Position numbers and translations under genes: made by a program. A stretch of DNA of 64,000 nucleotides from assembly GCF_041886205.1 (NCBI RefSeq), contig NZ_CP169029.1, one strand, 5' to 3'. This DNA comes from Escherichia coli (lineage in GTDB: Bacteria; Pseudomonadota; Gammaproteobacteria; Enterobacterales; Enterobacteriaceae). Positions 15,788 to 41,201 of this stretch are shown in pieces. Position 1 is the first letter of the stretch. Each line of letters starts with the position of its first letter. The notes under the pieces are model-generated. The model was given only the letters and a program-made list of their open reading frames with translations. It searched no databases and was not told the origin of the DNA.

Positions 15788-16134
15788 CACACACCCCACA
15801 CCACAACGAATCCATAAATCACGTAAACCACCAGTGCAACGACAATCACCAGTTGCAGCATCAGGCGCAAAGCCAGCGGTTTAACGTAGTCGGTCAACAC
15901 CTGCCACATGCCGATCCAGGCATGGATCAAGATAGAAAACAGCGCCAGCAGGGTGAACACTTTGGTAAACGCAGAGGCGAAGAAACCGATCCAGACTTCA
16001 TATGTCAGCTCGCCACTGGTAGCGAAAAAACCGACCATATAAATGATGTAGAGCGTCAGGACGATAGCGGTAGCGCGAACGAGGATGAAATCATGTACGC
16101 CATTGCGTCCTAATGCGGAGGCGTTGCTTACCAT
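15787..16134 (-). CDS. sdhD: Succinate dehydrogenase membrane anchor subunit
   Basis: 115-aa hydrophobic ORF directly upstream of sdhA. Confidence 0.95.
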
Positions 16135-16517
16135 ATGAGGACTCCTGCGAGAAGTGAAAGCACGACAGTAATAACAAAGGAGATTTTGGCGGAGCGTTTA
16201 CCCGCTTCGAATGTTTCTTCCAGATAGCCAAAATCCATCATCATGTGGCGAATACCTACGACGACGTGATACGCCAGAGCGGTAAGGATGCCCCACATGA
16301 TAAATTTGACGAAGAAGCTGCCCATAATCGCGGAAGCTTGCTCGAAACCTTCAGGGGAAGAGAGGCTGGTACCCAGAAGCCACAGCAGGATGCCCACTGC
16401 AACAAAGGTGATCACACCGGAAACGCGATGGAGAATGGACGCTATCGCCGTGATGGGGAACCGGATGGTCTGTAGGTCCAGATTAACAGGTCTTTGTTTT
16501 TTCACATTTCTTATCAT
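16128..16517 (-). CDS. sdhC: Succinate dehydrogenase cytochrome b556 subunit
   Basis: ORF track gives 134 aa; start placed at [15 protein letters not shown] (129 aa). Confidence 0.93.
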
Positions 16518-17225
16518 GAATAACGCCCACATGCTGTTCTTATTATTCCCTGGGGACTACGGGCACAGAGGTTAACTTTCTGTTACCTGGAGACGTCGGG
16601 ATTTCCTTCCTCCGGTCTGCTTGCGGGTCAGACAGCGTCCTTTCTATAACTGCGCGTCATGCAAAACACTGCTTCCAGATGCGAAAACGACACGTTACAA
16701 CGCTGGGTGGCTCGGGATTGCAGGGTGTTCCGGAGACCTGGCGGCAGTATAGGCCGTTCACAAAATCATTACAATTAACCTACATATAGTTTGTCGGGTT
16801 TTATCCTGAACAGTGATCCAGGTCACGATAACAACATTTATTTAATTTTTAATCATCTAATTTGACAATCATTCAACAAAGTTGTTACAAACATTACCAG
16901 GAAAAGCATATAATGCGTAAAAGTTATGAAGTCGGTATTTCACCTAAGATTAACTTATGTAACAGTGTGGAAGTATTGACCAATTCATTCGGGACAGTTA
17001 TTAGTGGTAGACAAGTTTAATAATTCGGATTGCTAAGTACTTGATTCGCCATTTATTCGTCATCAATGGATCCTTTACCTGCAAGCGCCCAGAGCTCTGT
17101 ACCCAGGTTTTCCCCTCTTTCACAGAGCGGCGAGCCAAATAAAAAACGGGTAAAGCCAGGTTGATGTGCGAAGGCAAATTTAAGTTCCGGCAGTCTTACG
17201 CAATAAGGCGCTAAGGAGACCTTAA
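16518..17225. promoter_or_regulatory. Divergent gltA / sdhCDAB-sucABCD promoter-control region
   Basis: About 700 bp, AT-rich, no credible ORF, lying between divergently transcribed gltA and sdhC; this intergenic region is known to carry the promoters of both operons. Individual sites not resolved here. Confidence 0.6.
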
Positions 17226-18509
17226 ATGGCTGATACAAAAGCAAAACTCACCCTCAACGGGGACACAGCTGTTGAACTGGATGTGCTGAAAGGCACGCTG
17301 GGTCAAGATGTTATTGATATCCGTACTCTCGGCTCAAAAGGTGTGTTCACCTTTGACCCAGGCTTCACTTCAACCGCATCCTGCGAATCTAAAATTACTT
17401 TTATTGATGGTGATGAAGGTATTTTGCTGCACCGCGGTTTCCCGATCGATCAGCTGGCGACCGATTCTAACTACCTGGAAGTTTGTTACATCCTGCTGAA
17501 TGGTGAAAAACCGACTCAGGAACAGTATGACGAATTTAAAACTACGGTGACCCGTCATACCATGATCCACGAGCAGATTACCCGTCTGTTCCATGCTTTC
17601 CGTCGCGACTCGCATCCAATGGCAGTCATGTGTGGTATTACCGGCGCGCTGGCGGCGTTCTATCACGACTCGCTGGATGTTAACAATCCTCGTCACCGTG
17701 AAATTGCCGCGTTCCGCCTGTTGTCGAAAATGCCGACCATGGCCGCGATGTGTTACAAGTATTCCATTGGTCAGCCATTTGTTTACCCGCGCAACGATCT
17801 CTCCTACGCCGGTAACTTCCTGAATATGATGTTCTCTACGCCGTGCGAACCGTATGAAGTTAATCCGATTCTGGAACGTGCTATGGACCGTATTCTGATC
17901 CTGCACGCTGACCATGAACAGAACGCCTCCACCTCCACCGTGCGTACCGCTGGCTCTTCGGGTGCGAACCCATTTGCCTGTATCGCAGCAGGTATTGCTT
18001 CACTGTGGGGACCTGCGCACGGTGGTGCTAACGAAGCAGCGCTGAAAATGCTGGAAGAAATCAGCTCCGTTAAACACATTCCGGAATTTGTTCGTCGTGC
18101 GAAAGATAAAAATGATTCTTTCCGCCTGATGGGCTTCGGTCACCGCGTATACAAAAATTACGACCCGCGCGCCACCGTAATGCGTGAAACCTGCCATGAA
18201 GTTCTGAAAGAGTTGGGCACGAAAGATGACCTGCTGGAAGTGGCTATGGAACTGGAAAACATCGCGCTGAACGACCCGTACTTTATCGAGAAGAAACTGT
18301 ACCCGAACGTCGATTTCTACTCTGGTATCATCCTGAAAGCGATGGGTATTCCGTCTTCCATGTTCACCGTCATTTTCGCAATGGCACGTACCGTTGGCTG
18401 GATCGCCCACTGGAGCGAAATGCACAGTGACGGTATGAAGATTGCCCGTCCGCGTCAGCTGTATACAGGATATGAAAAACGCGACTTTAAAAGCGATATC
18501 AAGCGTTAA
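17226..18509 (+). CDS. gltA: Citrate synthase
   Basis: 427-aa [39 protein letters not shown]... Confidence 0.97.
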
Positions 18510-18538
18510 TGGTTGATTGCTAAGTAGTAAATATTTTA

Positions 18539-18571
18539 ACCCGCCATTCATATGGCGGGTTGATTTTTATA
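18539..18571 (+). terminator. Intrinsic terminator downstream of gltA
   Basis: Hairpin aacccgccat-tcat-atggcgggtt followed by T-rich tract. Confidence 0.6.
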
Positions 18572-18900
18572 TGCCTAAACACAAAAAATTGTAAAAATAA
18601 AATCCACTATCGGATATTCATATATTCTAAAAAAATATATATCGGTATAAATTATAAACAAATCGATGGCTTTTAATCACCTATGTTCCTCTCAGTCACA
18701 TGAATAAACCACCAAATATAGCGCTTCCCTATAATTTCCAATGTTTTATTCATTAAACAATTAATTCATGTAATCAATTAATTACTTTTACATTTAATAA
18801 AATTAATAATATTTTTAAGAAAAACTAAAAACATTCGACAATTAAATAAGATATTCTTGCACCGATATACCTTTTTTCTTTTCTGTTAAAGGACTCAGTT

Positions 18901-19467
18901 ATGTTTAAAGGACAAAAAACATTGGCCGCACTGGCCGTATCTCTGCTGTTCACTGCACCTGTTTATGCAGCTGATGAAGGATCCGGTGAAATTCACTTTA
19001 AAGGTGAGGTTATTGAAGCGCCTTGTGAAATACATCAGGATGATATTGATAAAGAAGTTGAACTTGGTCAGGTGACCACCAGCCACATTAATCAGTCACA
19101 TCACAGCGATGCCGTTGCTGTCGACCTGCGCTTAGTCAACTGCGATCTGGAAAACTCCAGCAACGGTTCCGGTGGCAAGATTTCTAAAGTTGCAGTCACC
19201 TTTGATAGCTCAGCGAAAACAACCGGCGCAGATCCGATTCTCAACAACACCAGCACGGGTGAAGCCACCGGCGTCGGCGTGCGTTTATTGAATAAAAATC
19301 AAACCAATATCGTTTTAGGCACCGCTGCTCCTGACATCGACCTGGCACCGACCTCCAGCGAACAAACGCTGAATTTCTTTGCCTGGATGGAACAAATTGA
19401 TCAGGCAACACCTGTAACGCCAGGCGCAGTTACAGCGAATGCGACCTACGTGCTGGATTATAAATAA
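18901..19467 (+). CDS. ybgD: Fimbrial-like major subunit (type 1 pilin family)
   Basis: 188-aa ORF with signal peptide (MFKGQKTLAALAVSLLFTAPVYA) and pilin-type C-terminus. Confidence 0.85.
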   Translation: MFKGQKTLAALAVSLLFTAPVYAADEGSGEIHFKGEVIEAPCEIHQDDIDKEVELGQVTTSHINQSHHSDAVAVDLRLVNCDLENSSNGSGGKISKVAVTFDSSAKTTGADPILNNTSTGEATGVGVRLLNKNQTNIVLGTAAPDIDLAPTSSEQTLNFFAWMEQIDQATPVTPGAVTANATYVLDYK

Positions 19468-19517
19468 GTATTACTTTGGCGGCGCTATCGCCGCCTTTCC
19501 TCAAATATTTATCAGGT

Positions 19518-21977
19518 ATGGACACCGTGAATATTTATCGACTCTCTTTTGTATCCTGCCTGGTCATGGCGATGCCTTCCGCATTGGCGGTCGAATTCAA
19601 CCTGAATGTTCTCGATAAATCGATGCGCGATCGTATTGATATATCATTATTAAAGGAAAAAGGTGTCATTGCTCCAGGCGAATATTTTGTTAGCGTTGCG
19701 GTAAATAATAACCAAATCAGTAACGGGCAAAAGATTAACTGGCACAAAAATGACGATAAAACCATTCCATGCATCAATGATTTACTGGTCGATAAATTTG
19801 GCTTAAAACCTGAAGTCCGTCAGTCGTTACCATTGATAAATCAGTGCGTCGATTTTAGCTCCCGACCTGAAATGCTCTTCAATTTTGATCAGGCCAGTCA
19901 GCAACTAAATATCACCATTCCGCAGGCCTGGCTGGCGTGGCACTCAGATAACTGGCCCCCACCCTCCACATGGAAAGAAGGTGTCGCCGGTGTCCTGATG
20001 GATTACAACTTGTTTGCCAGCAGCTACCGCCCACAGGATGGCAGCAGCAGCACTAATCTTAACGCCTATGGAACAGCCGGAATCAACACGGGGGCATGGC
20101 GCTTACGCAGTGATTATCAGTTGAATCAGACTGATAGCGATGATAACCATGAACAGTCAGGCGAAATATCACGCACCTATCTTTTTCGCCCGTTACCGCA
20201 ATTAGGTTCAAAATTAACCCTCGGCGAAACGGATTTTAGTTCCAATATTTTCGACGGTTTTTCTTATACCGGCGCGGCACTGGCAAGTGACGATCGAATG
20301 TTGCCATGGGAACTACGCGGCTACGCCCCACAAATTAGCGGTATTGCACAGACCAATGCCACGGTGACGATCAGTCAATCAGGCCGCGTCATTTACCAGA
20401 AAAAAGTCCCACCAGGCCCATTTATCATTGACGACCTTAATCAGTCCGTCCAGGGGACGCTGGATGTCAAAGTGACGGAAGAAGATGGTCGGGTGAACAA
20501 TTTCCAGGTTTCGGCAGCATCGACGCCCTTTCTGACTCGCCAGGGACAGGTGCGCTATAAACTGGCCGCGGGTCAGCCACGGCCCTCCATGTCACATCAA
20601 ACTGAAAATGAAACCTTTTTTAGCAATGAAGTTTCCTGGGGGATGCTCTCAAACACCTCGCTGTACGGCGGCCTGCTGCTTTCTGGTGATGACTACCATT
20701 CTGCCGCAATAGGTATCGGGCAAAATATGCTGTGGCTTGGCGCGCTGTCGTTTGATGTCACGTGGGCCAGTAGTCACTTTGATACTCAGCAGGACGAGCG
20801 GGGCTTAAGCTACCGTTTTAATTACAGCAAACAAGTGGATGCCACCAACAGCACGATTTCGCTCGCCGCTTATCGTTTCTCCGATCGTCATTTTCACAGC
20901 TACGCCAACTATCTTGATCACAAATACAACGACAACGATGCGCAGGACGAAAAACAGACGATCAGCTTATCCGTGGGCCAACCGATTACCCCACTAAACC
21001 TCAATCTTTACGCCAACCTGCTGCATCAAACCTGGTGGAATGCAGACGCCTCCACGACCGCTAACATCACGGCGGGTTTTAATGTTGATATTGGTGACTG
21101 GAGAGATATCTCGATCTCAACGTCATTCAATACGACCCATTACGAAGATAAAGAGCGCGACAACCAGATTTACCTGTCGATTTCGCTCCCCTTCGGTAAC
21201 GGTGGTCGGGTTGGCTATGACATGCAAAACAGTAGCCACAGCACCACACACCGCATGTCGTGGAACGACACGCTGGATGAACGTAATAGCTGGGGCATGT
21301 CTGCCGGACTGCAATCCGACCGTCCGGACAATGGAGCCCAGGTGAGCGGTAACTATCAGCATCTGAGTTCAGCGGGTGAGTGGGATATTTCTGGTACCTA
21401 TGCCGCCAATGATTACAGTTCCGTCAGCAGCAGCTGGAGCGGTTCTTTCACCGCAACCCAATATGGTGCAGCGTTTCATCGCCGCAGCTCCACCAATGAA
21501 CCACGCCTGATGGTCAGCACCGATGGCGTGGCAGATATTCCGGTTCAGGGCAATCTCGACTACACCAACCATTTTGGTATTGCGGTGGTTCCATTGATTT
21601 CCAGTTACCAGCCTTCCACCGTGGCGGTCAACATGAATGACTTACCCGACGGCGTAACAGTTGCAGAAAACGTTATCAAAGAAACGTGGATTGAAGGCGC
21701 GATAGGTTACAAATCACTGGCTTCCCGTTCCGGTAAAGACGTTAACGTCATCATTCGCAACGTCAGCGGTCAGTTCCCTCCCCTCGGTGCGGATATCCGC
21801 CAGCATGACAGCGGCATTAGCGTGGGAATGGTTGGCGAGGAAGGACACGCCTGGTTAAGCGGAGTCGCTGAAAATCAAAAATTTACCGTGGTCTGGGGTG
21901 ATAGCCAGCGTTGCTCGATCCATCTTCCTGAACATATGGAAGACACCGCAAATCGCCTGATTTTACCTTGTCATTAA
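19518..21977 (+). CDS. ybgQ: Fimbrial outer-membrane usher protein
   Basis: About 820-aa ORF in usher position; exact start uncertain (ATG at 19518 or GTG at 19527). Confidence 0.85.
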   Translation: MDTVNIYRLSFVSCLVMAMPSALAVEFNLNVLDKSMRDRIDISLLKEKGVIAPGEYFVSVAVNNNQISNGQKINWHKNDDKTIPCINDLLVDKFGLKPEVRQSLPLINQCVDFSSRPEMLFNFDQASQQLNITIPQAWLAWHSDNWPPPSTWKEGVAGVLMDYNLFASSYRPQDGSSSTNLNAYGTAGINTGAWRLRSDYQLNQTDSDDNHEQSGEISRTYLFRPLPQLGSKLTLGETDFSSNIFDGFSYTGAALASDDRMLPWELRGYAPQISGIAQTNATVTISQSGRVIYQKKVPPGPFIIDDLNQSVQGTLDVKVTEEDGRVNNFQVSAASTPFLTRQGQVRYKLAAGQPRPSMSHQTENETFFSNEVSWGMLSNTSLYGGLLLSGDDYHSAAIGIGQNMLWLGALSFDVTWASSHFDTQQDERGLSYRFNYSKQVDATNSTISLAAYRFSDRHFHSYANYLDHKYNDNDAQDEKQTISLSVGQPITPLNLNLYANLLHQTWWNADASTTANITAGFNVDIGDWRDISISTSFNTTHYEDKERDNQIYLSISLPFGNGGRVGYDMQNSSHSTTHRMSWNDTLDERNSWGMSAGLQSDRPDNGAQVSGNYQHLSSAGEWDISGTYAANDYSSVSSSWSGSFTATQYGAAFHRRSSTNEPRLMVSTDGVADIPVQGNLDYTNHFGIAVVPLISSYQPSTVAVNMNDLPDGVTVAENVIKETWIEGAIGYKSLASRSGKDVNVIIRNVSGQFPPLGADIRQHDSGISVGMVGEEGHAWLSGVAENQKFTVVWGDSQRCSIHLPEHMEDTANRLILPCH

Positions 21978-21991
21978 TTAAGGAAATGAAA

Positions 21992-22723
21992 ATGACATTT
22001 ATGAAAGGACTTTCCCTTTTGTTGTTGGTTGCCAGTCTGTGCAGCCACGCTGCACTACAACCCGATCGCACTCGTATTGTGTTCAACGCTAATGATAAAG
22101 CTACCAGTCTGCGAGTAGATAATCGTAGCGATAAACTCCCCTACCTCGCTTATTCCTGGCTCGAAAATGAAAAAGGGGAGAAAAGCGACGATCTTCTGGT
22201 CGCCCTGCCACCGATACAACGTCTGGAACCGAAAGCAACAACGCAGGTGCGGATAGTCAAGCAAGCGTCGACCGCGAAATTACCAGGCGATCGCGAAACG
22301 CTATTTTTCTACAATATACGTGAAGTTCCTCCCGCCCCGGAAAAAAACAGCGACCATGCCGTTTTGCAAGTCGCCATCCAGAGTCGTATCAAGGTGTTCT
22401 GGAGACCGTCCGCGTTACGCAAGAAAGCAGGAGAAAAGGTCGAACTGCAGCTGCAAGTCAGCCAGCAGGGCAACCAACTTAGCTTAAAAAACCCGACCGG
22501 TTATTATCTGACAATCGCCTACCTGGGCCGAAATGAGCAAGGCGTTCTCCCGGGTTTCAAAACTGTAATGATTGCGCCTTTTAGTACAGTCAGCACAAAC
22601 ACCGGAAGCTATAGCGGCAGCCAATTTTATCTCGGTTATATGGATGATTACGGCGCGTTACGCATGACAACGCTCAACTGCAGCGGACAATGCCGTTTAC
22701 AAGCAGTGGAGGCGAAGAAATGA
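21992..22723 (+). CDS. ybgP: Fimbrial periplasmic chaperone (PapD-like)
   Basis: About 243-aa ORF with signal peptide; start among three close ATGs is uncertain. Confidence 0.85.
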
Positions 22724-23781
22724 GTGCTGGTAAGCGATTATTGCTCATCTTTTTTCTGCTGTTTCTACCCTTGAAGTCTGCGCTGGCGCTGAACTGCTAT
22801 TTTGGTACTTCCGGCGGGGCGGTAGAAAAATCGGAAGCTATTCAACCATTTGCTGTACCAGGCAATGCCAAACCAGGTGATAAGATCTGGGAATCTGACG
22901 ATATTAAAATTCCCGTCTATTGTGACAACAATACCAACGGCAATTTTGAAAGTGAGCATGTTTATGCCTGGGTAAACCCCTACCCGGGGGTGCAGGATCG
23001 CTATTATCAACTCGGCGTAACTTACAATGGCGTTGATTATGACGCCAACCAGGGAAAAAGCCGCATCGACACTAACCAGTGTATTGACAGTAAGAACATT
23101 GACATTTATATCCCTGAGCAGATTATCGCGATGGGATGGCAGAACAAAATTTGCTCGGGTGATCCCGCTAATATTCACATGTCGCGTACCTTTCTCGCTC
23201 GCATGCGGTTATACGTCAAAATACGAGAAATGCCGCCGCATGATTATCAAAGTACGCTTAGCGACTATATCGTCGTGCAATTTGACGGTGCCGGTAGCGT
23301 TAACGAAGACCCTACTGCCCAAAACCTGAAATATCATATTACTGGTCTGGAAAACATTCGCGTGCTGGATTGCAGCGTCAATTTTTCCATTTCACCGGAA
23401 ACACAGGTGATTGATTTTGGTAAATTTAATTTGCTGGATATTCGTCGCCACACAATGTCGAAAACATTCAGTATTAAGACGACAAAATCACAAAATGACC
23501 AATGCACCGACGGATTTAAAGTCAGTTCCTCGTTTTATACTGAAGAAACGTTGGTTGAAGAAGATAAAGCATTGTTGATTGGTAATGGTCTGAAGCTACG
23601 TTTACTGGATGAAAACGCCTCGCCTTATACCTTCAATAAATATGCTGAATACGCCGATTTCACCAGCGATATGCTGATCTACGAAAAAACCTATACGGCT
23701 GAACTTTCGTCCATTGCAGGCACCCCCATCGAGGCTGGGCCCTTCGATACAGTGGTGCTTTTTAAAATTAACTATAACTGA
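22720..23781 (+). CDS. ybgO: Fimbrial adhesin-like protein
   Basis: 353-aa ORF starting [23 protein letters not shown] (signal peptide); last gene of the operon, 4-bp overlap with ybgP. Confidence 0.8.
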
Positions 23782-30776: not shown

Positions 30777-32195
30777 TTATTTCCCCTTCCGCGCCGCCTC
30801 ATACGCTGCCAACGTTTGTACTCTCGCTTCTTTGTGCTCGACTATCGGTTGCGGATAATCCAGCGTCACACCTGCTTTCTGCGCCCACTTCCACGGCTCA
30901 TGCACCACTTTCCCTGGCACATCGCGCAGTTCCGGTAGCCACTGGCGGATAAACTCGCCCTCATGGTCAAATTTCTCGCCCTGAGTTATCGGATTGAAAA
31001 TACGAAAATACGGCGCAGCATCAGTACCCGTAGAAGCCGCCCACTGCCAGCCACCGTTATTAGCTGCCAAATCACCATCAATCAGCTGCGACATGAAATA
31101 TCGCTCGCCTTCGCGCCAGTCGATCAATAAATCTTTCACCAGAAAACTGGCTGTAATCATCCGTAGCCGGTTATGCATCCAGCCAGTGCTGTTAAGCTGA
31201 CGCATGGCAGCATCGACAATCGGGTATCCCGTTTTGCCTTCCTGCCAGGCCTGTAAATGTGCGGGATTGCTCTGCCACTGCACACGATCCGTCCAGGCAA
31301 TAAACGGACAATGTTTACACAACGAGGGGTAATACGTCATCAGATGACGGTAGAACTCGCGCCAGATCAGCTCACTAAGCCAGACACTACCGGCCCCACC
31401 GTCCAGCGCCTGCGGCTGTTCCGCCAACAAGCGATGCAAACACTGGCGAGGCGATAACCCGCCCGTTGCCAGGCTGGCGGACAAACGACTGGTGCCTTCC
31501 ACTGCCGGAAAATCTCGTTGTTGCTCATATTCTCCGGCACCGTTCTGGCAAAACTGGCGTAATTGCGCAATCGCCGCTTTTTCTTCCACCGGGAAATGCG
31601 CAGTATCGAAAGACTGACGAGGATAATTCAGCGTAATGGATGGCGCGGGCTTTATCGATCCGCTACTACGAACTTTTGGTGCAGCGACGCACTCCGGCAT
31701 CCCTTCCCGCAGCCGTTTCAGCCAGGCATTCTTAAAAGGCGTAAAGACTTTGCACATTTCGTGATTGCCGGTCATCACCGCCCCCGGCGGCAGGATCACA
31801 CTGTCATCAAATCCTTCACACACCACGTTACGCAGCGCTCTTTCAACTTCCACATCCCGCGCCCGCTCATTCACTTCATACTGATAGTTATAAAACAGGT
31901 GGGTAACGCTGTTTTCCGCGCACACCTGTTTAACTATTTCGACACTGGCGACAAAGTCATCCACTTCACGGAACAATAAAGGAATACCTTTTTCCGCAAG
32001 CGCTATTTGTAGCCCATTCAGTTGAGCATTGATAAGTTCAGCCTGACGCGGCGACATGTTATGCGTCGCCCACTGGCGTGGTGTAGCGATATACAACGCC
32101 AGCACGCGTGCAGACGAATTGCGGCAGGCGGCAGCCAGTGCGAGATTATCGTGCAGACGTAAATCCTGGCGAAACCAGACCAGATGGGTAGTCAT
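30777..32195 (-). CDS. phr: Deoxyribodipyrimidine photolyase
   Basis: 472-aa ORF, MTTHLVWFRQDLRLHDNLALAAA... photolyase/cryptochrome family. Confidence 0.95.
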   Translation of the reverse strand: MTTHLVWFRQDLRLHDNLALAAACRNSSARVLALYIATPRQWATHNMSPRQAELINAQLNGLQIALAEKGIPLLFREVDDFVASVEIVKQVCAENSVTHLFYNYQYEVNERARDVEVERALRNVVCEGFDDSVILPPGAVMTGNHEMCKVFTPFKNAWLKRLREGMPECVAAPKVRSSGSIKPAPSITLNYPRQSFDTAHFPVEEKAAIAQLRQFCQNGAGEYEQQRDFPAVEGTSRLSASLATGGLSPRQCLHRLLAEQPQALDGGAGSVWLSELIWREFYRHLMTYYPSLCKHCPFIAWTDRVQWQSNPAHLQAWQEGKTGYPIVDAAMRQLNSTGWMHNRLRMITASFLVKDLLIDWREGERYFMSQLIDGDLAANNGGWQWAASTGTDAAPYFRIFNPITQGEKFDHEGEFIRQWLPELRDVPGKVVHEPWKWAQKAGVTLDYPQPIVEHKEARVQTLAAYEAARKGK

Positions 32196-32701
32196 AAAAC
32201 TCCTGAATGGCGCAAGTTAATCACACGCGGCCAAAGTTCGAAATAACGCTGCCCTGAAAGCCAGGCGTCAGGATAAAGCGCCATATAGTGTTTGATACGC
32301 ATCAGCGGCGCAAGAAGTGGTTGCTCGCCACGGCGATAACTGTCGATAAGCGCAGCCAGCTGCTGGCGTTCTGTGGAATCAATATGCGGGCGAAAATAAC
32401 CCTGAACGTGCATCAAAACGTTGGTGTGGTCACGTCGGTTGGCGGGGTGAGAAAGCAAAACAACTACGCGTTGGCGGTACTGGTTGTAATAGTCATCCAG
32501 ATTTTGCCACTGGTGAATATCAGCCACGAACGGGCCAAGTTTGCGGTACTCCGGCTGAGAATGCGCCAGAAAGACGAGTTTATAGCGGCTGTGATAATCG
32601 AGAAGCGCCCCGCGCGTTAAGCCATGTTCTTTCAGTCGATGTAACTCATGAAGGGCAAAGATACGGATTAGGGTGCTGTCATCAAATCGTTGTAGATTCA
32701 T
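32192..32701 (-). CDS. ybgA: DUF1722-family protein co-transcribed with phr
   Basis: Start placed at MNLQRFDD (169 aa), preceded by an AGGAG Shine-Dalgarno at good spacing; 4-bp overlap with phr start. Confidence 0.85.
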   Translation of the reverse strand: MNLQRFDDSTLIRIFALHELHRLKEHGLTRGALLDYHSRYKLVFLAHSQPEYRKLGPFVADIHQWQNLDDYYNQYRQRVVVLLSHPANRRDHTNVLMHVQGYFRPHIDSTERQQLAALIDSYRRGEQPLLAPLMRIKHYMALYPDAWLSGQRYFELWPRVINLRHSGVL

Positions 32702-32802
32702 TACTGCTCCTGAACGGTTTACAGGAGTAAGTGTAGACGGCGAAAAGAAAAAAACCGCCAGCATCTCCACTAGCGGTTTTCAATGTATTCAAAACTCAGC
32801 AA

Positions 32803-33009
32803 TCAATAAAAATCACCAGTTGCCTTTTCGGCCTGATCCATCCACACCGGTTTATCGCTGGTTTTCGACCAGACGCGATGCAGGTAGCTGTAAAAGCGGG
32901 CGCGGTCTTTCCAGAAAAGCATGAAAGGCAGCGCCAGAACGCCCGCTGCAACCGCATAAGTACGGCGTAAAAAGATAAGCCATGCAGGATATTCTCTGTA
33001 GAGTTCCAT
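32803..33009 (-). CDS. ybfA: Small DUF2517-type protein YbfA
   Basis: 68-aa [37 protein letters not shown]..., adjacent and divergent to kdpF. Confidence 0.75.
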
Positions 33010-33218
33010 ACTTTTCTCCCCCTTTTGTATCTACCCGGTGAATGGCACCGGAAAAATGAATTTGTTTATCTGATGAAAATAGTACCGCCTTTTGTGTAAT
33101 TTTACTACTCATCCGACCACTTATTTTTGCTTATTGATGGTTTATTTACATTCATCCTGTAATTAAGTTACACAAAAGTTAAATTAATACTAAACATTAG
33201 TTAAATCATGGCTTTTGC

Positions 33219-33248
33219 CATTTTTATACTTTTTTTACACCCCGCCCG
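33219..33248 (+). promoter_or_regulatory. KdpE response-regulator binding site of the kdpFABC promoter
   Basis: Sequence catttttatactttttttacaccccgcccg about 75-100 bp upstream of kdpF matches the KdpE operator as I recall it; imperfect direct repeat of T-rich half-sites seen directly. Confidence 0.6.
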
Positions 33249-33321
33249 CAGATTTTTGCGAAATCTTTGCAGCCAGAATTCTACCCTTCCGGTATCACTT
33301 TTAGGCCACTGGAGGTGCACT

Positions 33322-33411
33322 GTGAGTGCAGGCGTGATAACCGGCGTATTGCTGGTGTTTTTATTACTGGGTTATCTGGTTTATGCCCTGATCAATGCGG
33401 AGGCGTTCTGA
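33322..33411 (+). CDS. kdpF: K+-transporting ATPase small subunit KdpF
   Basis: 29-aa hydrophobic peptide (GTG start) [28 protein letters not shown]; stop overlaps kdpA ATG by 1 nt. Confidence 0.85.
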
Positions 33412-35084
33412 TGGCTGCGCAAGGGTTCTTACTGATCGCCACGTTTTTACTGGTGTTAATGGTGCTGGCGCGTCCTTTAGGCAGCGGGCTGGCGCGGCTG
33501 ATTAATGACATTCCTCTTCCCGGTACAACGGGCGTTGAGCGCGTACTTTTTCGCGCACTTGGCGTCTCTGACCGTGAGATGAACTGGAAGCAATATCTCT
33601 GTGCCATTCTCGGCCTGAACATGCTGGGGCTGGCGGTGCTGTTTTTTATGTTGCTCGGTCAGCACTATCTGCCGCTTAATCCACAGCAGTTGCCGGGGCT
33701 GTCGTGGGATCTGGCGCTGAATACCGCCGTCAGCTTTGTCACGAATACCAACTGGCAATCTTACAGCGGTGAAACCACGTTGAGCTATTTCAGCCAGATG
33801 GCTGGCTTAACGGTGCAAAACTTTCTTTCTGCCGCCAGCGGGATTGCGGTGATTTTTGCCCTCATCCGTGCGTTTACCCGCCAGAGCATGAGCACACTCG
33901 GGAATGCCTGGGTCGATCTGCTACGCATCACGTTATGGGTGCTCGTCCCTGTGGCGTTGTTGATCGCACTGTTTTTTATTCAACAAGGTGCGCTGCAAAA
34001 CTTTCAGCCTTATCAGGCTGTGAATACCGTTGAAGGAGCGCAACAGCTGTTACCCATGGGGCCTGTAGCTTCTCAGGAAGCGATCAAGATGCTCGGTACT
34101 AACGGCGGTGGCTTCTTTAATGCCAACTCGTCGCATCCGTTTGAAAACCCAACCGCACTGACCAACTTCGTGCAGATGCTGGCGATCTTCTTGATCCCAA
34201 CGGCGCTGTGCTTTGCCTTTGGTGAAGTGACGGGCGATCGCCGCCAGGGGCGCATGTTGCTGTGGGCGATGTCAGTGATTTTTGTCATCTGCGTAGGCGT
34301 GGTGATGTGGGCAGAAGTTCAGGGTAATCCTCATCTGCTGGCGCTCGGCGCAGACAGCAGCATCAATATGGAAGGTAAAGAGAGCCGTTTCGGCGTGCTG
34401 GTCAGTAGCCTGTTTGCGGTCGTGACTACGGCGGCTTCCTGTGGCGCGGTGATTGCGATGCATGATTCGTTTACCGCTCTCGGTGGCATGGTGCCGATGT
34501 GGCTGATGCAAATTGGTGAAGTGGTGTTCGGCGGTGTCGGTTCTGGTCTTTACGGCATGATGCTGTTTGTCCTGCTGGCGGTGTTTATTGCCGGGCTGAT
34601 GATTGGTCGTACACCGGAATATCTGGGTAAAAAAATCGACGTACGTGAGATGAAACTGACTGCACTGGCGATTCTGGTCACCCCGACGCTGGTGCTGATG
34701 GGCGCGGCGCTGGCAATGATGACCGACGCCGGACGTAGCGCCATGCTCAACCCTGGCCCGCATGGTTTTAGCGAAGTGCTGTACGCCGTGTCATCCGCCG
34801 CTAACAACAACGGCAGCGCCTTTGCCGGATTAAGCGCCAACTCTCCGTTCTGGAACTGTTTACTGGCGTTCTGCATGTTTGTCGGTCGCTTCGGGGTGAT
34901 TATCCCGGTGATGGCAATTGCCGGTTCGCTGGTGAGTAAAAAGAGCCAACCCGCCAGCTCCGGCACGCTGCCAACGCACGGCCCGCTGTTTGTTGGCCTG
35001 TTAATCGGCACCGTGTTGCTGGTTGGCGCACTGACCTTTATCCCTGCCCTGGCGCTTGGTCCGGTGGCGGAATATCTCTCCTGA
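33411..35084 (+). CDS. kdpA: K+-transporting ATPase subunit A
   Basis: 557 aa from [25 protein letters not shown]; the ORF-track N-terminal extension is rejected. Confidence 0.95.
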
Positions 35085-40413: not shown

Positions 40414-41087
40414 CAAACGTTCTGATTGTTGAAGATGAACAGGCTATTCGTCGCTTTCTGCGCACGGCGCTGGAGGGCGACGGTATGCGCGTCTTTGAGG
40501 CCGAAACGCTGCAACGCGGCTTGCTGGAAGCGGCAACCCGTAAGCCAGATTTGATTATTCTCGATCTCGGCCTGCCCGATGGTGATGGGATTGAGTTTAT
40601 CCGCGACCTGCGCCAGTGGAGCGCGGTGCCGGTGATAGTGCTTTCCGCACGCAGCGAAGAGAGCGACAAAATCGCCGCGCTGGATGCCGGAGCGGATGAT
40701 TATCTGAGTAAGCCGTTTGGCATTGGCGAATTGCAGGCCCGTCTGCGCGTCGCATTACGCCGCCATTCAGCCACTGCCGCGCCCGATCCGGTAGTGAAAT
40801 TTTCCGATGTTACCGTCGATTTAGCCGCCCGCGTGATTCACCGGGGTGAGGAAGAGGTGCATCTCACCCCGATTGAATTCCGCCTGCTGGCGGTGCTGCT
40901 CAACAATGCCGGAAAAGTGCTCACCCAGCGCCAGCTTCTTAACCAGGTGTGGGGGCCAAACGCGGTCGAACACAGTCATTATTTGCGTATTTATATGGGA
41001 CATCTGCGACAAAAACTGGAACAGGATCCCGCTCGCCCCCGCCATTTCATTACTGAAACCGGTATTGGGTATCGGTTTATGCTTTAG
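40410..41087 (+). CDS. kdpE: OmpR-family response regulator KdpE
   Basis: 225-aa ORF (GTG start) [17 protein letters not shown]...; 4-bp overlap with kdpD. Confidence 0.95.
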   Translation: MTNVLIVEDEQAIRRFLRTALEGDGMRVFEAETLQRGLLEAATRKPDLIILDLGLPDGDGIEFIRDLRQWSAVPVIVLSARSEESDKIAALDAGADDYLSKPFGIGELQARLRVALRRHSATAAPDPVVKFSDVTVDLAARVIHRGEEEVHLTPIEFRLLAVLLNNAGKVLTQRQLLNQVWGPNAVEHSHYLRIYMGHLRQKLEQDPARPRHFITETGIGYRFML

Positions 41088-41099
41088 GCGGTTGAATTA

Positions 41100-41182
41100 C
41101 CGGATGCGGCGTATACGCTTTATATGGCCTACGTAATGCTCCCGTAGGCATGATAAAACGCGCTAGCGTCGCATCAGGCATT
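41100..41182. repeat. REP-like palindromic element(s) between kdpE and ybfP
   Basis: cggatgcggcgtatacgc..., cccgtaggcatgataaaacgcgctagcgtcgcatcaggca seen directly. Confidence 0.55.
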
Positions 41183-41201
41183 GGCACTCATATCGAAATG
41201 T

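Follow-up and report, generated by a model that had tools for sequence, protein, structure and literature searches.

An Escherichia coli ybfA-ybgA gap that is very probably an unoccupied RhsC site

The 101-bp gap (32702-32802) that separates ybfA from ybgA in the window, the 64-kb stretch of Escherichia coli DNA analysed here, is very probably an unoccupied allele of the RhsC site (rhs 'position 5') that retains the ancestral enterobacterial layout. A first-pass annotation had remarked that the two genes adjoin with about 100 bp between them, that the K-12 RhsC element is absent at this point and that the place looks like an empty Rhs insertion site. The measured length and a protein search agree with the first two remarks, and the third is borne out by 8-9 nt in the gap that occupied alleles lack. 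The K-12 map that it gave, with the rhsC element between ybfA and ybgA-phr, agrees with the MG1655 annotation, and the alignment it proposed maps the boundary to a single base.

Junction sequence compared with the K-12 RhsC element

The genes at the locus all lie on the minus strand in the order phr, ybgA, gap and ybfA (Table 1); kdpFABC and dtpD flank the group, an arrangement also found in K-12. The ybfA stop codon occupies 32803-32805; at the other end of the cluster the phr start overlaps the ybgA stop, and ybgA and phr are presumably co-transcribed. Strain LHM10-1 is 100% identical to the window over 701 bp spanning the gap and carries the same annotation, with phrB named there. A tblastn search of the 64-kb window with K-12 proteins matched YbfA, YbgA, Phr and KdpA, and detected no homology to RhsC or YbfD (H-rpt) anywhere in it. 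No known RNA family was recognized in 32500-33450, where a single miRNA match is attributable to chance (E = 0.37).

Table 1 Features at the ybfA-ybgA junction, in window coordinates
Feature	Position	Strand	Description
phr (phrB), deoxyribodipyrimidine photolyase	30777..32195	-	472-aa ORF; tblastn 98.3% to K-12 Phr
ybgA, DUF1722 protein, 169 aa	32192..32701	-	true start is the ATG at 32701; 99.4% to K-12 YbgA
Shine-Dalgarno AGGAG of ybgA	32707..32711	-	read directly from the sequence
Conserved box TCTACACTTA	32728..32737	-	core hexamer TACACT at 32730-32735; candidate sigma-S-type extended -10 of a ybgA-phr promoter
Insertion slot	32740..32748	.	(T)CTTTTCGC in ybfA sense; sole gap bases without a K-12 counterpart
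U7 tract of the ybfA terminator	32748..32754	-	T6 in K-12 and some empty alleles
ybfA intrinsic terminator hairpin (putative), extended by A:U pairs	32750..32781	-	core stem-loop 32755-32776: CCGCUAGUG / UGCUGGCGG, GAGA loop
ybfA, DUF2517 protein, 68 aa	32803..33009	-	tblastn 100% to K-12 YbfA

K-12 MG1655 (NC_000913) has the order ybfA, rhsC, ybfB, ybfO, ybfC, ybfQ, ybfL, ybfD and ybgA, with ybfA at 729134-729340 and ybgA from 739001. In blastn alignments the left flank of the window (33598-32749) corresponds to K-12 728545-729394 with 99.5% identity and the right flank (32739-32000) to K-12 738963-739702 with 99.2% identity, the boundary bases being window 32749 paired with K-12 729394 and window 32739 paired with K-12 738963. 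Between these flanks lie 9,568 bp in K-12 versus 9 nt (32740-32748) in the window. Written in ybfA sense, the window reads ...GCTGGCGG-TTTTTTT-CTTTTCGC-CGTCTACACTTAC..., and K-12 reads ...GCTGGCGG-TTTTTT/GTATCAGG...(island)...TTTCTCAA/CGTCTACACTTAC..., with slashes at the boundaries. Since the T-run is T6 or T7 among empty alleles, the island replaces 8-9 nt. The slot sits directly 3' of the ybfA terminator U-tract and 2-4 nt ahead of the TCTACACTTA box, from which it is separated by CG (32738-32739).

The ends of the island carry none of the marks of a mobile element. There is no target-site duplication, the longest string common to both flanks being 2 nt, and 8-9 nt of target are lost instead; the terminal inverted repeat of the island, 6 nt, matches what shuffling gives (mean 6.0); the annotation of the K-12 element and of its flanks shows neither an integrase nor a tRNA; and no att repeat or core is found at the site. 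Insertion mediated by a transposon, an IS or an integrase is rejected on these grounds, and arrival would therefore not have been by IS- or integrase-type chemistry. Neither an Rhs-end remnant nor a scar is present in the gap, the full length of which aligns with other empty alleles.

Over the 64 kb the window is typically 98-99% identical to K-12, with divergent patches, and several differences lie away from the junction. The ybgD-ybgQ-ybgP-ybgO fimbrial operon (18001-23000) is 81-95% identical to K-12 against that 98-99% background. At 41085-41201, 115 bp of REP-like sequence occupy the position of a 5.15-kb K-12 segment (speFL-speF-potE-ybfI-ybfG), and the inducible ornithine decarboxylase/putrescine antiporter operon is absent there, as it is from strain A3176. 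The first 1,078 positions (1-1078) have no counterpart in K-12 697500-773000, a stretch that includes the mngB-cydA intergenic region; a plus-strand RtcB-like ORF at 23-937 (304 aa as listed, motifs GSGNHFIELQ and HGAGR) adjoins mngB. Within phr, 31002-31801 is 95-96% identical to K-12 with runs of UTI89-matching sites and the neighbouring 31802-32201 is 100% identical, a pattern suggestive of mosaicism by recombination within the photolyase gene.

Distribution and history of the empty and occupied states

Empty E. coli alleles were read in the window, ET201, PE164, EC1515, PS10-3, 042, N3, O145 RM9872, 23CRST026, UTI89 and two divergent species-cluster representatives. The comparison of eleven sequences takes in A-like lineages, D (strain 042), O145, B2 (UTI89) and two divergent 'E. 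coli' representatives. All eleven alleles show the hairpin, a T-run and an 8-9-nt filler, followed by CGTCTA(C/A)AC. The filler reads CTTTTCG(C/G) in nine alleles, GTTTTCGC in E69 and ATGTACGC in SCPM, and occupied alleles lack the filler found in every empty allele examined.

For an outgroup survey, one genome per species was scanned with YbgA and then searched by tblastn. In six Citrobacter genomes, Enterobacter and Trabulsiella, kdpA, ybfA, ybgA and phr are directly adjacent, and the gap contains the same hairpin, T7-8, a filler of 8-11 nt and CTACACTTA. Downstream of the variable filler, these close genera share a conserved (C)GTCTACACTTA, followed by AGGAG and ATG; the AGGAG is kept in Citrobacter and Enterobacter and is AGGGA in Trabulsiella. 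In Dickeya, Erwinia, Pragia, Budvicia and Samsonia, ybfA lies 0.5-2.2 kb upstream of ybgA. The same gap layout in Citrobacter, Enterobacter and Trabulsiella argues that the empty state is ancestral, and the comparison indicates that the empty allele is the ancestral configuration and not the product of a deletion.

The empty state, ancestral to Enterobacteriaceae and to further Enterobacterales genera, is also neither rare nor peculiar. Among 5,426 complete E. coli genomes, 5,424 of which have the flanks, about 1,310 (24%) show the contiguous arrangement. The K-12-type left junction occurs in 3,720 genomes and the K-12-type right junction in 3,209, the shortfall including rearranged H-rpt ends, as in EC21Z-097. 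Small IS insertions interrupt the ybgA-ybfA region in some empty genomes, for example IS1 in DETEC-S586 (NZ_CP116074.1).

The right junction was compared in other Escherichia species, whose contigs end inside the insert. The junction ...CACAAAnnTCATTnnCnAn/CGTCTACAC is common to E. albertii, E. whittamii and Escherichia spp. MOD1-EC7003 and E1V33; in these four lineages the foreign DNA upstream of ybgA ends exactly at the K-12 right boundary, and its last 20-100 nt are recognizably homologous to the end of the K-12 island, which argues that the insertion is old. An H-rpt copy with 92-93% identity to that of K-12 is present in E. whittamii, and E1V33 has an Rhs fragment. On this sequence comparison the occupied state predates E. 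coli, in agreement with what Jackson et al. 2009 (PMC2935791) state in their passages on Rhs loci. Because the site is occupied in other Escherichia and the empty layout is ancestral, both states would have coexisted for a long time within the genus.

What the slot holds varies from strain to strain: the K-12-type Rhs island; in E. coli Ecol_545, a divergent Rhs island with the same two boundaries and a left end 86% identical to that of K-12; or a 1.75-kb SUKH/CdiI immunity island. The last, which contains no rhs, is found between the ybfA terminator and ybgA in 171 complete E. coli genomes. In one example, E. coli A3176 (L034), it spans 16047-17795, and its slot corresponds to window 32740-32754. 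It encodes three small ORFs, of which one is SUKH-1-like below the Pfam cutoff, one is of no assigned family and one matches CdiI_3 at E = 4e-17. Entry of the immunity island is at the T-run or inside it, and a filler-like copy, T6-CAATACTGC, remains at the right end of this island; the entry points of the immunity and Rhs islands thus fall within about 9 nt of each other and are not identical. Separately, strain B1.H1.18 has an IS1 inside its immunity island, an approximately 200-bp repeat inside the island (L034 16147-16342) has 96-98% matches at several other chromosomal places, and a 1.85-kb island query finds a median of 7 matching places per E. coli genome, one of them adjoining Rpn-family nuclease genes.

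The RhsC island most likely arrived by illegitimate insertion, once and long ago, after which both states would have been inherited vertically and swapped by homologous recombination through the conserved flanks. Foreign DNA would have replaced only the filler, the sole stretch of the gap that is not conserved between genera. We infer the spread of both states by flank recombination from a SNP comparison in which the flanking markers do not sort by site state, a pattern that points to homologous exchange through the flanks. The window carries K-12-type SNPs within 34-46 bp on both sides of the junction, at 32693/32694 and 32806, together with empty-type markers at 32714, 32769 and 32772, and the empty strains 042 and N3 carry the K-12 hairpin.

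An old occupied state combined with unsorted markers means that the lineage of the window could once have been occupied and then re-emptied, an occupied ancestor having exchanged its RhsC element for an imported empty allele by recombination through the ybfA and ybgA flanks. We regard this course of events as possible and on the whole doubtful. In its favour, the occupied state is common to other Escherichia species. The allele of the window is rare, occurring in 9 of the 5,426 genomes, and over 20001-45000, where strains wlxctx60 and 6EVA match the window at 100% and no more than nine genomes reach 99%, the next best matches (98.2%; HS, O121 and others) are rhsC-occupied. The mosaic of markers near the junction and the recombinant patches in phr would also fit. 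Against it, no recombination tract boundary is demonstrable, and the nine-member clade differs by about 1.8% from every other genome over the 25 kb and, in the present data, has no close position inside an occupied lineage; moreover, the hairpin type is unlinked to site state, as 042 and N3 illustrate, so that a mosaic could form without any change of state. A simpler version, in which the window belongs to a near relative of K-12 with a recent loss of RhsC, is rejected on its identity of about 98-99% to K-12 over 64 kb and on the distance of at least 1.8% over 25 kb that separates it from all genomes outside its clade.

The reading that keeps the empty state as an inherited ancestral allele is opposed far less by deletion. 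If RhsC had been removed by illegitimate recombination or excision, the 101-bp gap would be its footprint, and it is true that Rhs loci are lost and eroded in some strains, according to the Rhs-loci passages of PMC2935791, and that reduced variants occur at this site. Deletion of the island could not, however, regenerate the filler, because occupied alleles lack it; the filler of the window is homologous to the one in other empty alleles of E. coli, its length and position are those seen in the outgroup genera, and no Rhs or H-rpt remnant is left in the window. We therefore consider a deletion scar highly improbable, and the junction sequence effectively refutes it. Collapse of a repeat-rich Rhs island during assembly has a negligible probability: short-read assemblies do fragment at Rhs and H-rpt repeats, and outgroup contigs end inside the insert, but identical junctions recur in nine independent complete genomes, the contiguous arrangement is seen in about 1,310, and the junction holds filler bases that occupied alleles are missing.

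The ybfA terminator and a candidate ybgA-phr promoter

In the direction of transcription, the gap would be composed of the ybfA stop, a terminator, 8-9 nt of unconstrained filler, the TCTACACTTA box, a short leader with AGGAG and the ATG of ybgA. Replacement of the filler alone would leave the terminator and the -10/leader segment intact in occupied strains.

A terminator scan returned one minus-strand site, 32781-32750, with 14 pairs (5 G-C) and a 4-nt loop followed by TTCTTTTCGC. The extended stem starts (32781) 21 nt past the ybfA stop codon, and U7 follows the stem-loop on the sense strand; the core of the putative terminator is a 9-bp stem with a U6-7 tract. The ybfA-sense RNA folds with -19.6 kcal/mol over 63 nt (z = -3.2 versus shuffles), compared with -10.7 kcal/mol for the opposite strand. 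Ten sequences from four genera (Escherichia, Citrobacter, Enterobacter and Trabulsiella) retain the consensus hairpin, with double changes in two pairs, and the position of the hairpin is conserved across these genera. The hairpin and U-tract are best read as the intrinsic terminator of ybfA, as the first-pass annotation had thought plausible on the strength of a weak hairpin and U7 at 32753..32787. The hairpin it described is real and has its U7; its coordinates are slightly offset (core 32755-32776, extended 32750-32781), and 'weak' does not suit a fold of this energy.

The K-12 hairpin folds with -28.6 kcal/mol (z = -6.2). It differs from that of the window at four positions, one in the loop and three in the stem, and the stem changes are G-U wobbles in the ybfA-sense RNA only. 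Two of the four differences are common to other empty alleles (PE164, EC1515 and O145) and two are specific to the clade of the window. The idea that the hairpin of the window carries a cluster of unique mutations is not upheld, since only 32763 and 32765 are clade-specific and the others are seen in other empty alleles. In the B2-type empty alleles (UTI89 and 23CRST026), identity to window 32602-33001 is only about 89.5% across the gap, and an essentially different 20-nt sequence leads from the ybfA stop to the hairpin (TGCCAAACATGACGTTTAAAG vs TGCTGAGTTTTGAATACATTG); this divergence is far above that of typical core genes.

No other part of the gap is as well conserved as the TCTACACTTA box: its conservation is at least 90% in 10 sequences from four genera, and the filler next to it is not conserved. 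The published sigma-S extended -10 consensus is TCTATACTTAA (PMC3367168); TCTACACTTAC matches it at 9 of the 11 positions, the C at -13 included. The box fits the pattern KCTAYRCTTA exactly, and this pattern has 2 matches in the 64 kb versus 0.4 expected. RegulonDB lists a sigma-38 promoter, ybgAp1, which is reported to be one of only two among 169 sigma-38 promoters with a detectable -35 (bioRxiv 10.1101/2020.02.05.936344). The box may thus be a sigma-S-type -10 element for ybgA-phr. Neither the gap nor the right junction of K-12 yields a sigma-70 promoter in a simple scan with 16-18-nt spacing. A leader hairpin (CUCCUG...CAGGAG) that would hide the ybgA Shine-Dalgarno sequence was considered and rejected, as its fold reaches -9.1 kcal/mol (z = -1.3) and Citrobacter and Enterobacter do not conserve it.

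K-12 has a -35-like TTCACA 19 nt upstream of TACACT, in island DNA and outside the 16-18-nt spacing of the scan. If TACACT is the -10 of ybgAp1, everything upstream of about -16 would be island DNA in K-12, where the window has the T-tract and hairpin of the ybfA terminator. The island may consequently alter the strength of a ybgA-phr promoter while preserving the terminator and the box. A broader proposal, speculative and in our view unlikely, is that the filler serves as a recurrent entry slot for unrelated toxin/immunity cargo, the occupancy of which rewires expression of the ybgA-phr photolyase operon. If it were true, photoreactivation capacity would differ between Rhs-occupied and Rhs-empty E. 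coli, and the TTCACA of the island may explain why ybgAp1 has a reported -35.

Comparison with known systems

The RhsC element of K-12 (rhsC-ybfB-ybfO-ybfC-ybfQ-ybfL-ybfD) was reportedly described by the group of C. W. Hill in the 1990s. The window represents the same chromosomal site to the base, with flanks 99.2-99.5% identical; it differs in being without the 9,568 bp of the element and in having 8-9 nt (CTTTTCGC plus or minus one T) absent from K-12. Rhs-free ('Rhs-null') sites are said to have been found in ECOR strains by Hill et al. in Genetics in 1995 and by Zhao et al. in J Bacteriol in 1993, and at those sites a short unique sequence reportedly takes the place of the Rhs element with no duplication. 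The empty RhsC site of the window is the same kind of observation. Chromosomal integration hotspots between conserved core genes are a general concept, and the RhsC site likewise offers one intergenic slot with cargo that varies from strain to strain; it differs from them in being without a tRNA, an integrase, an att repeat or a target-site duplication.

Presence or absence of the element at the RhsC site is a real, common and already known strain difference, and the current understanding of Rhs systems is unchanged by our analysis. The additions are modest: a junction at base level, the ancestral layout, the frequency of the empty state, the reuse of the slot and a hypothesis on the ybgA-phr promoter. 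The pre-insertion sequence of the RhsC site, given to the base, has reference value, and it constrains how the Rhs island arrived, which was apparently not by IS- or integrase-type chemistry and probably happened once, with later spread through flank homology.

Jackson et al. 2009 (PMC2935791), in their passages on Rhs loci, designate the kdpA...phr region rhs 'position 5' and describe it as variably occupied among E. coli and Shigella strains, with the element present in E. albertii and lacking in a group of pathogenic strains; they infer that the locus is older than E. coli and treat absences as loss. Their Abstract, E. coli Rhs-loci and Discussion passages contain no junction sequence. Our results agree with those passages in that B2 strains such as UTI89 are empty and that the right junction of E. 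albertii is occupied. They depart from the loss interpretation given there in that the empty allele described here appears to keep the ancestral intergenic layout, rather than being the product of a deletion.
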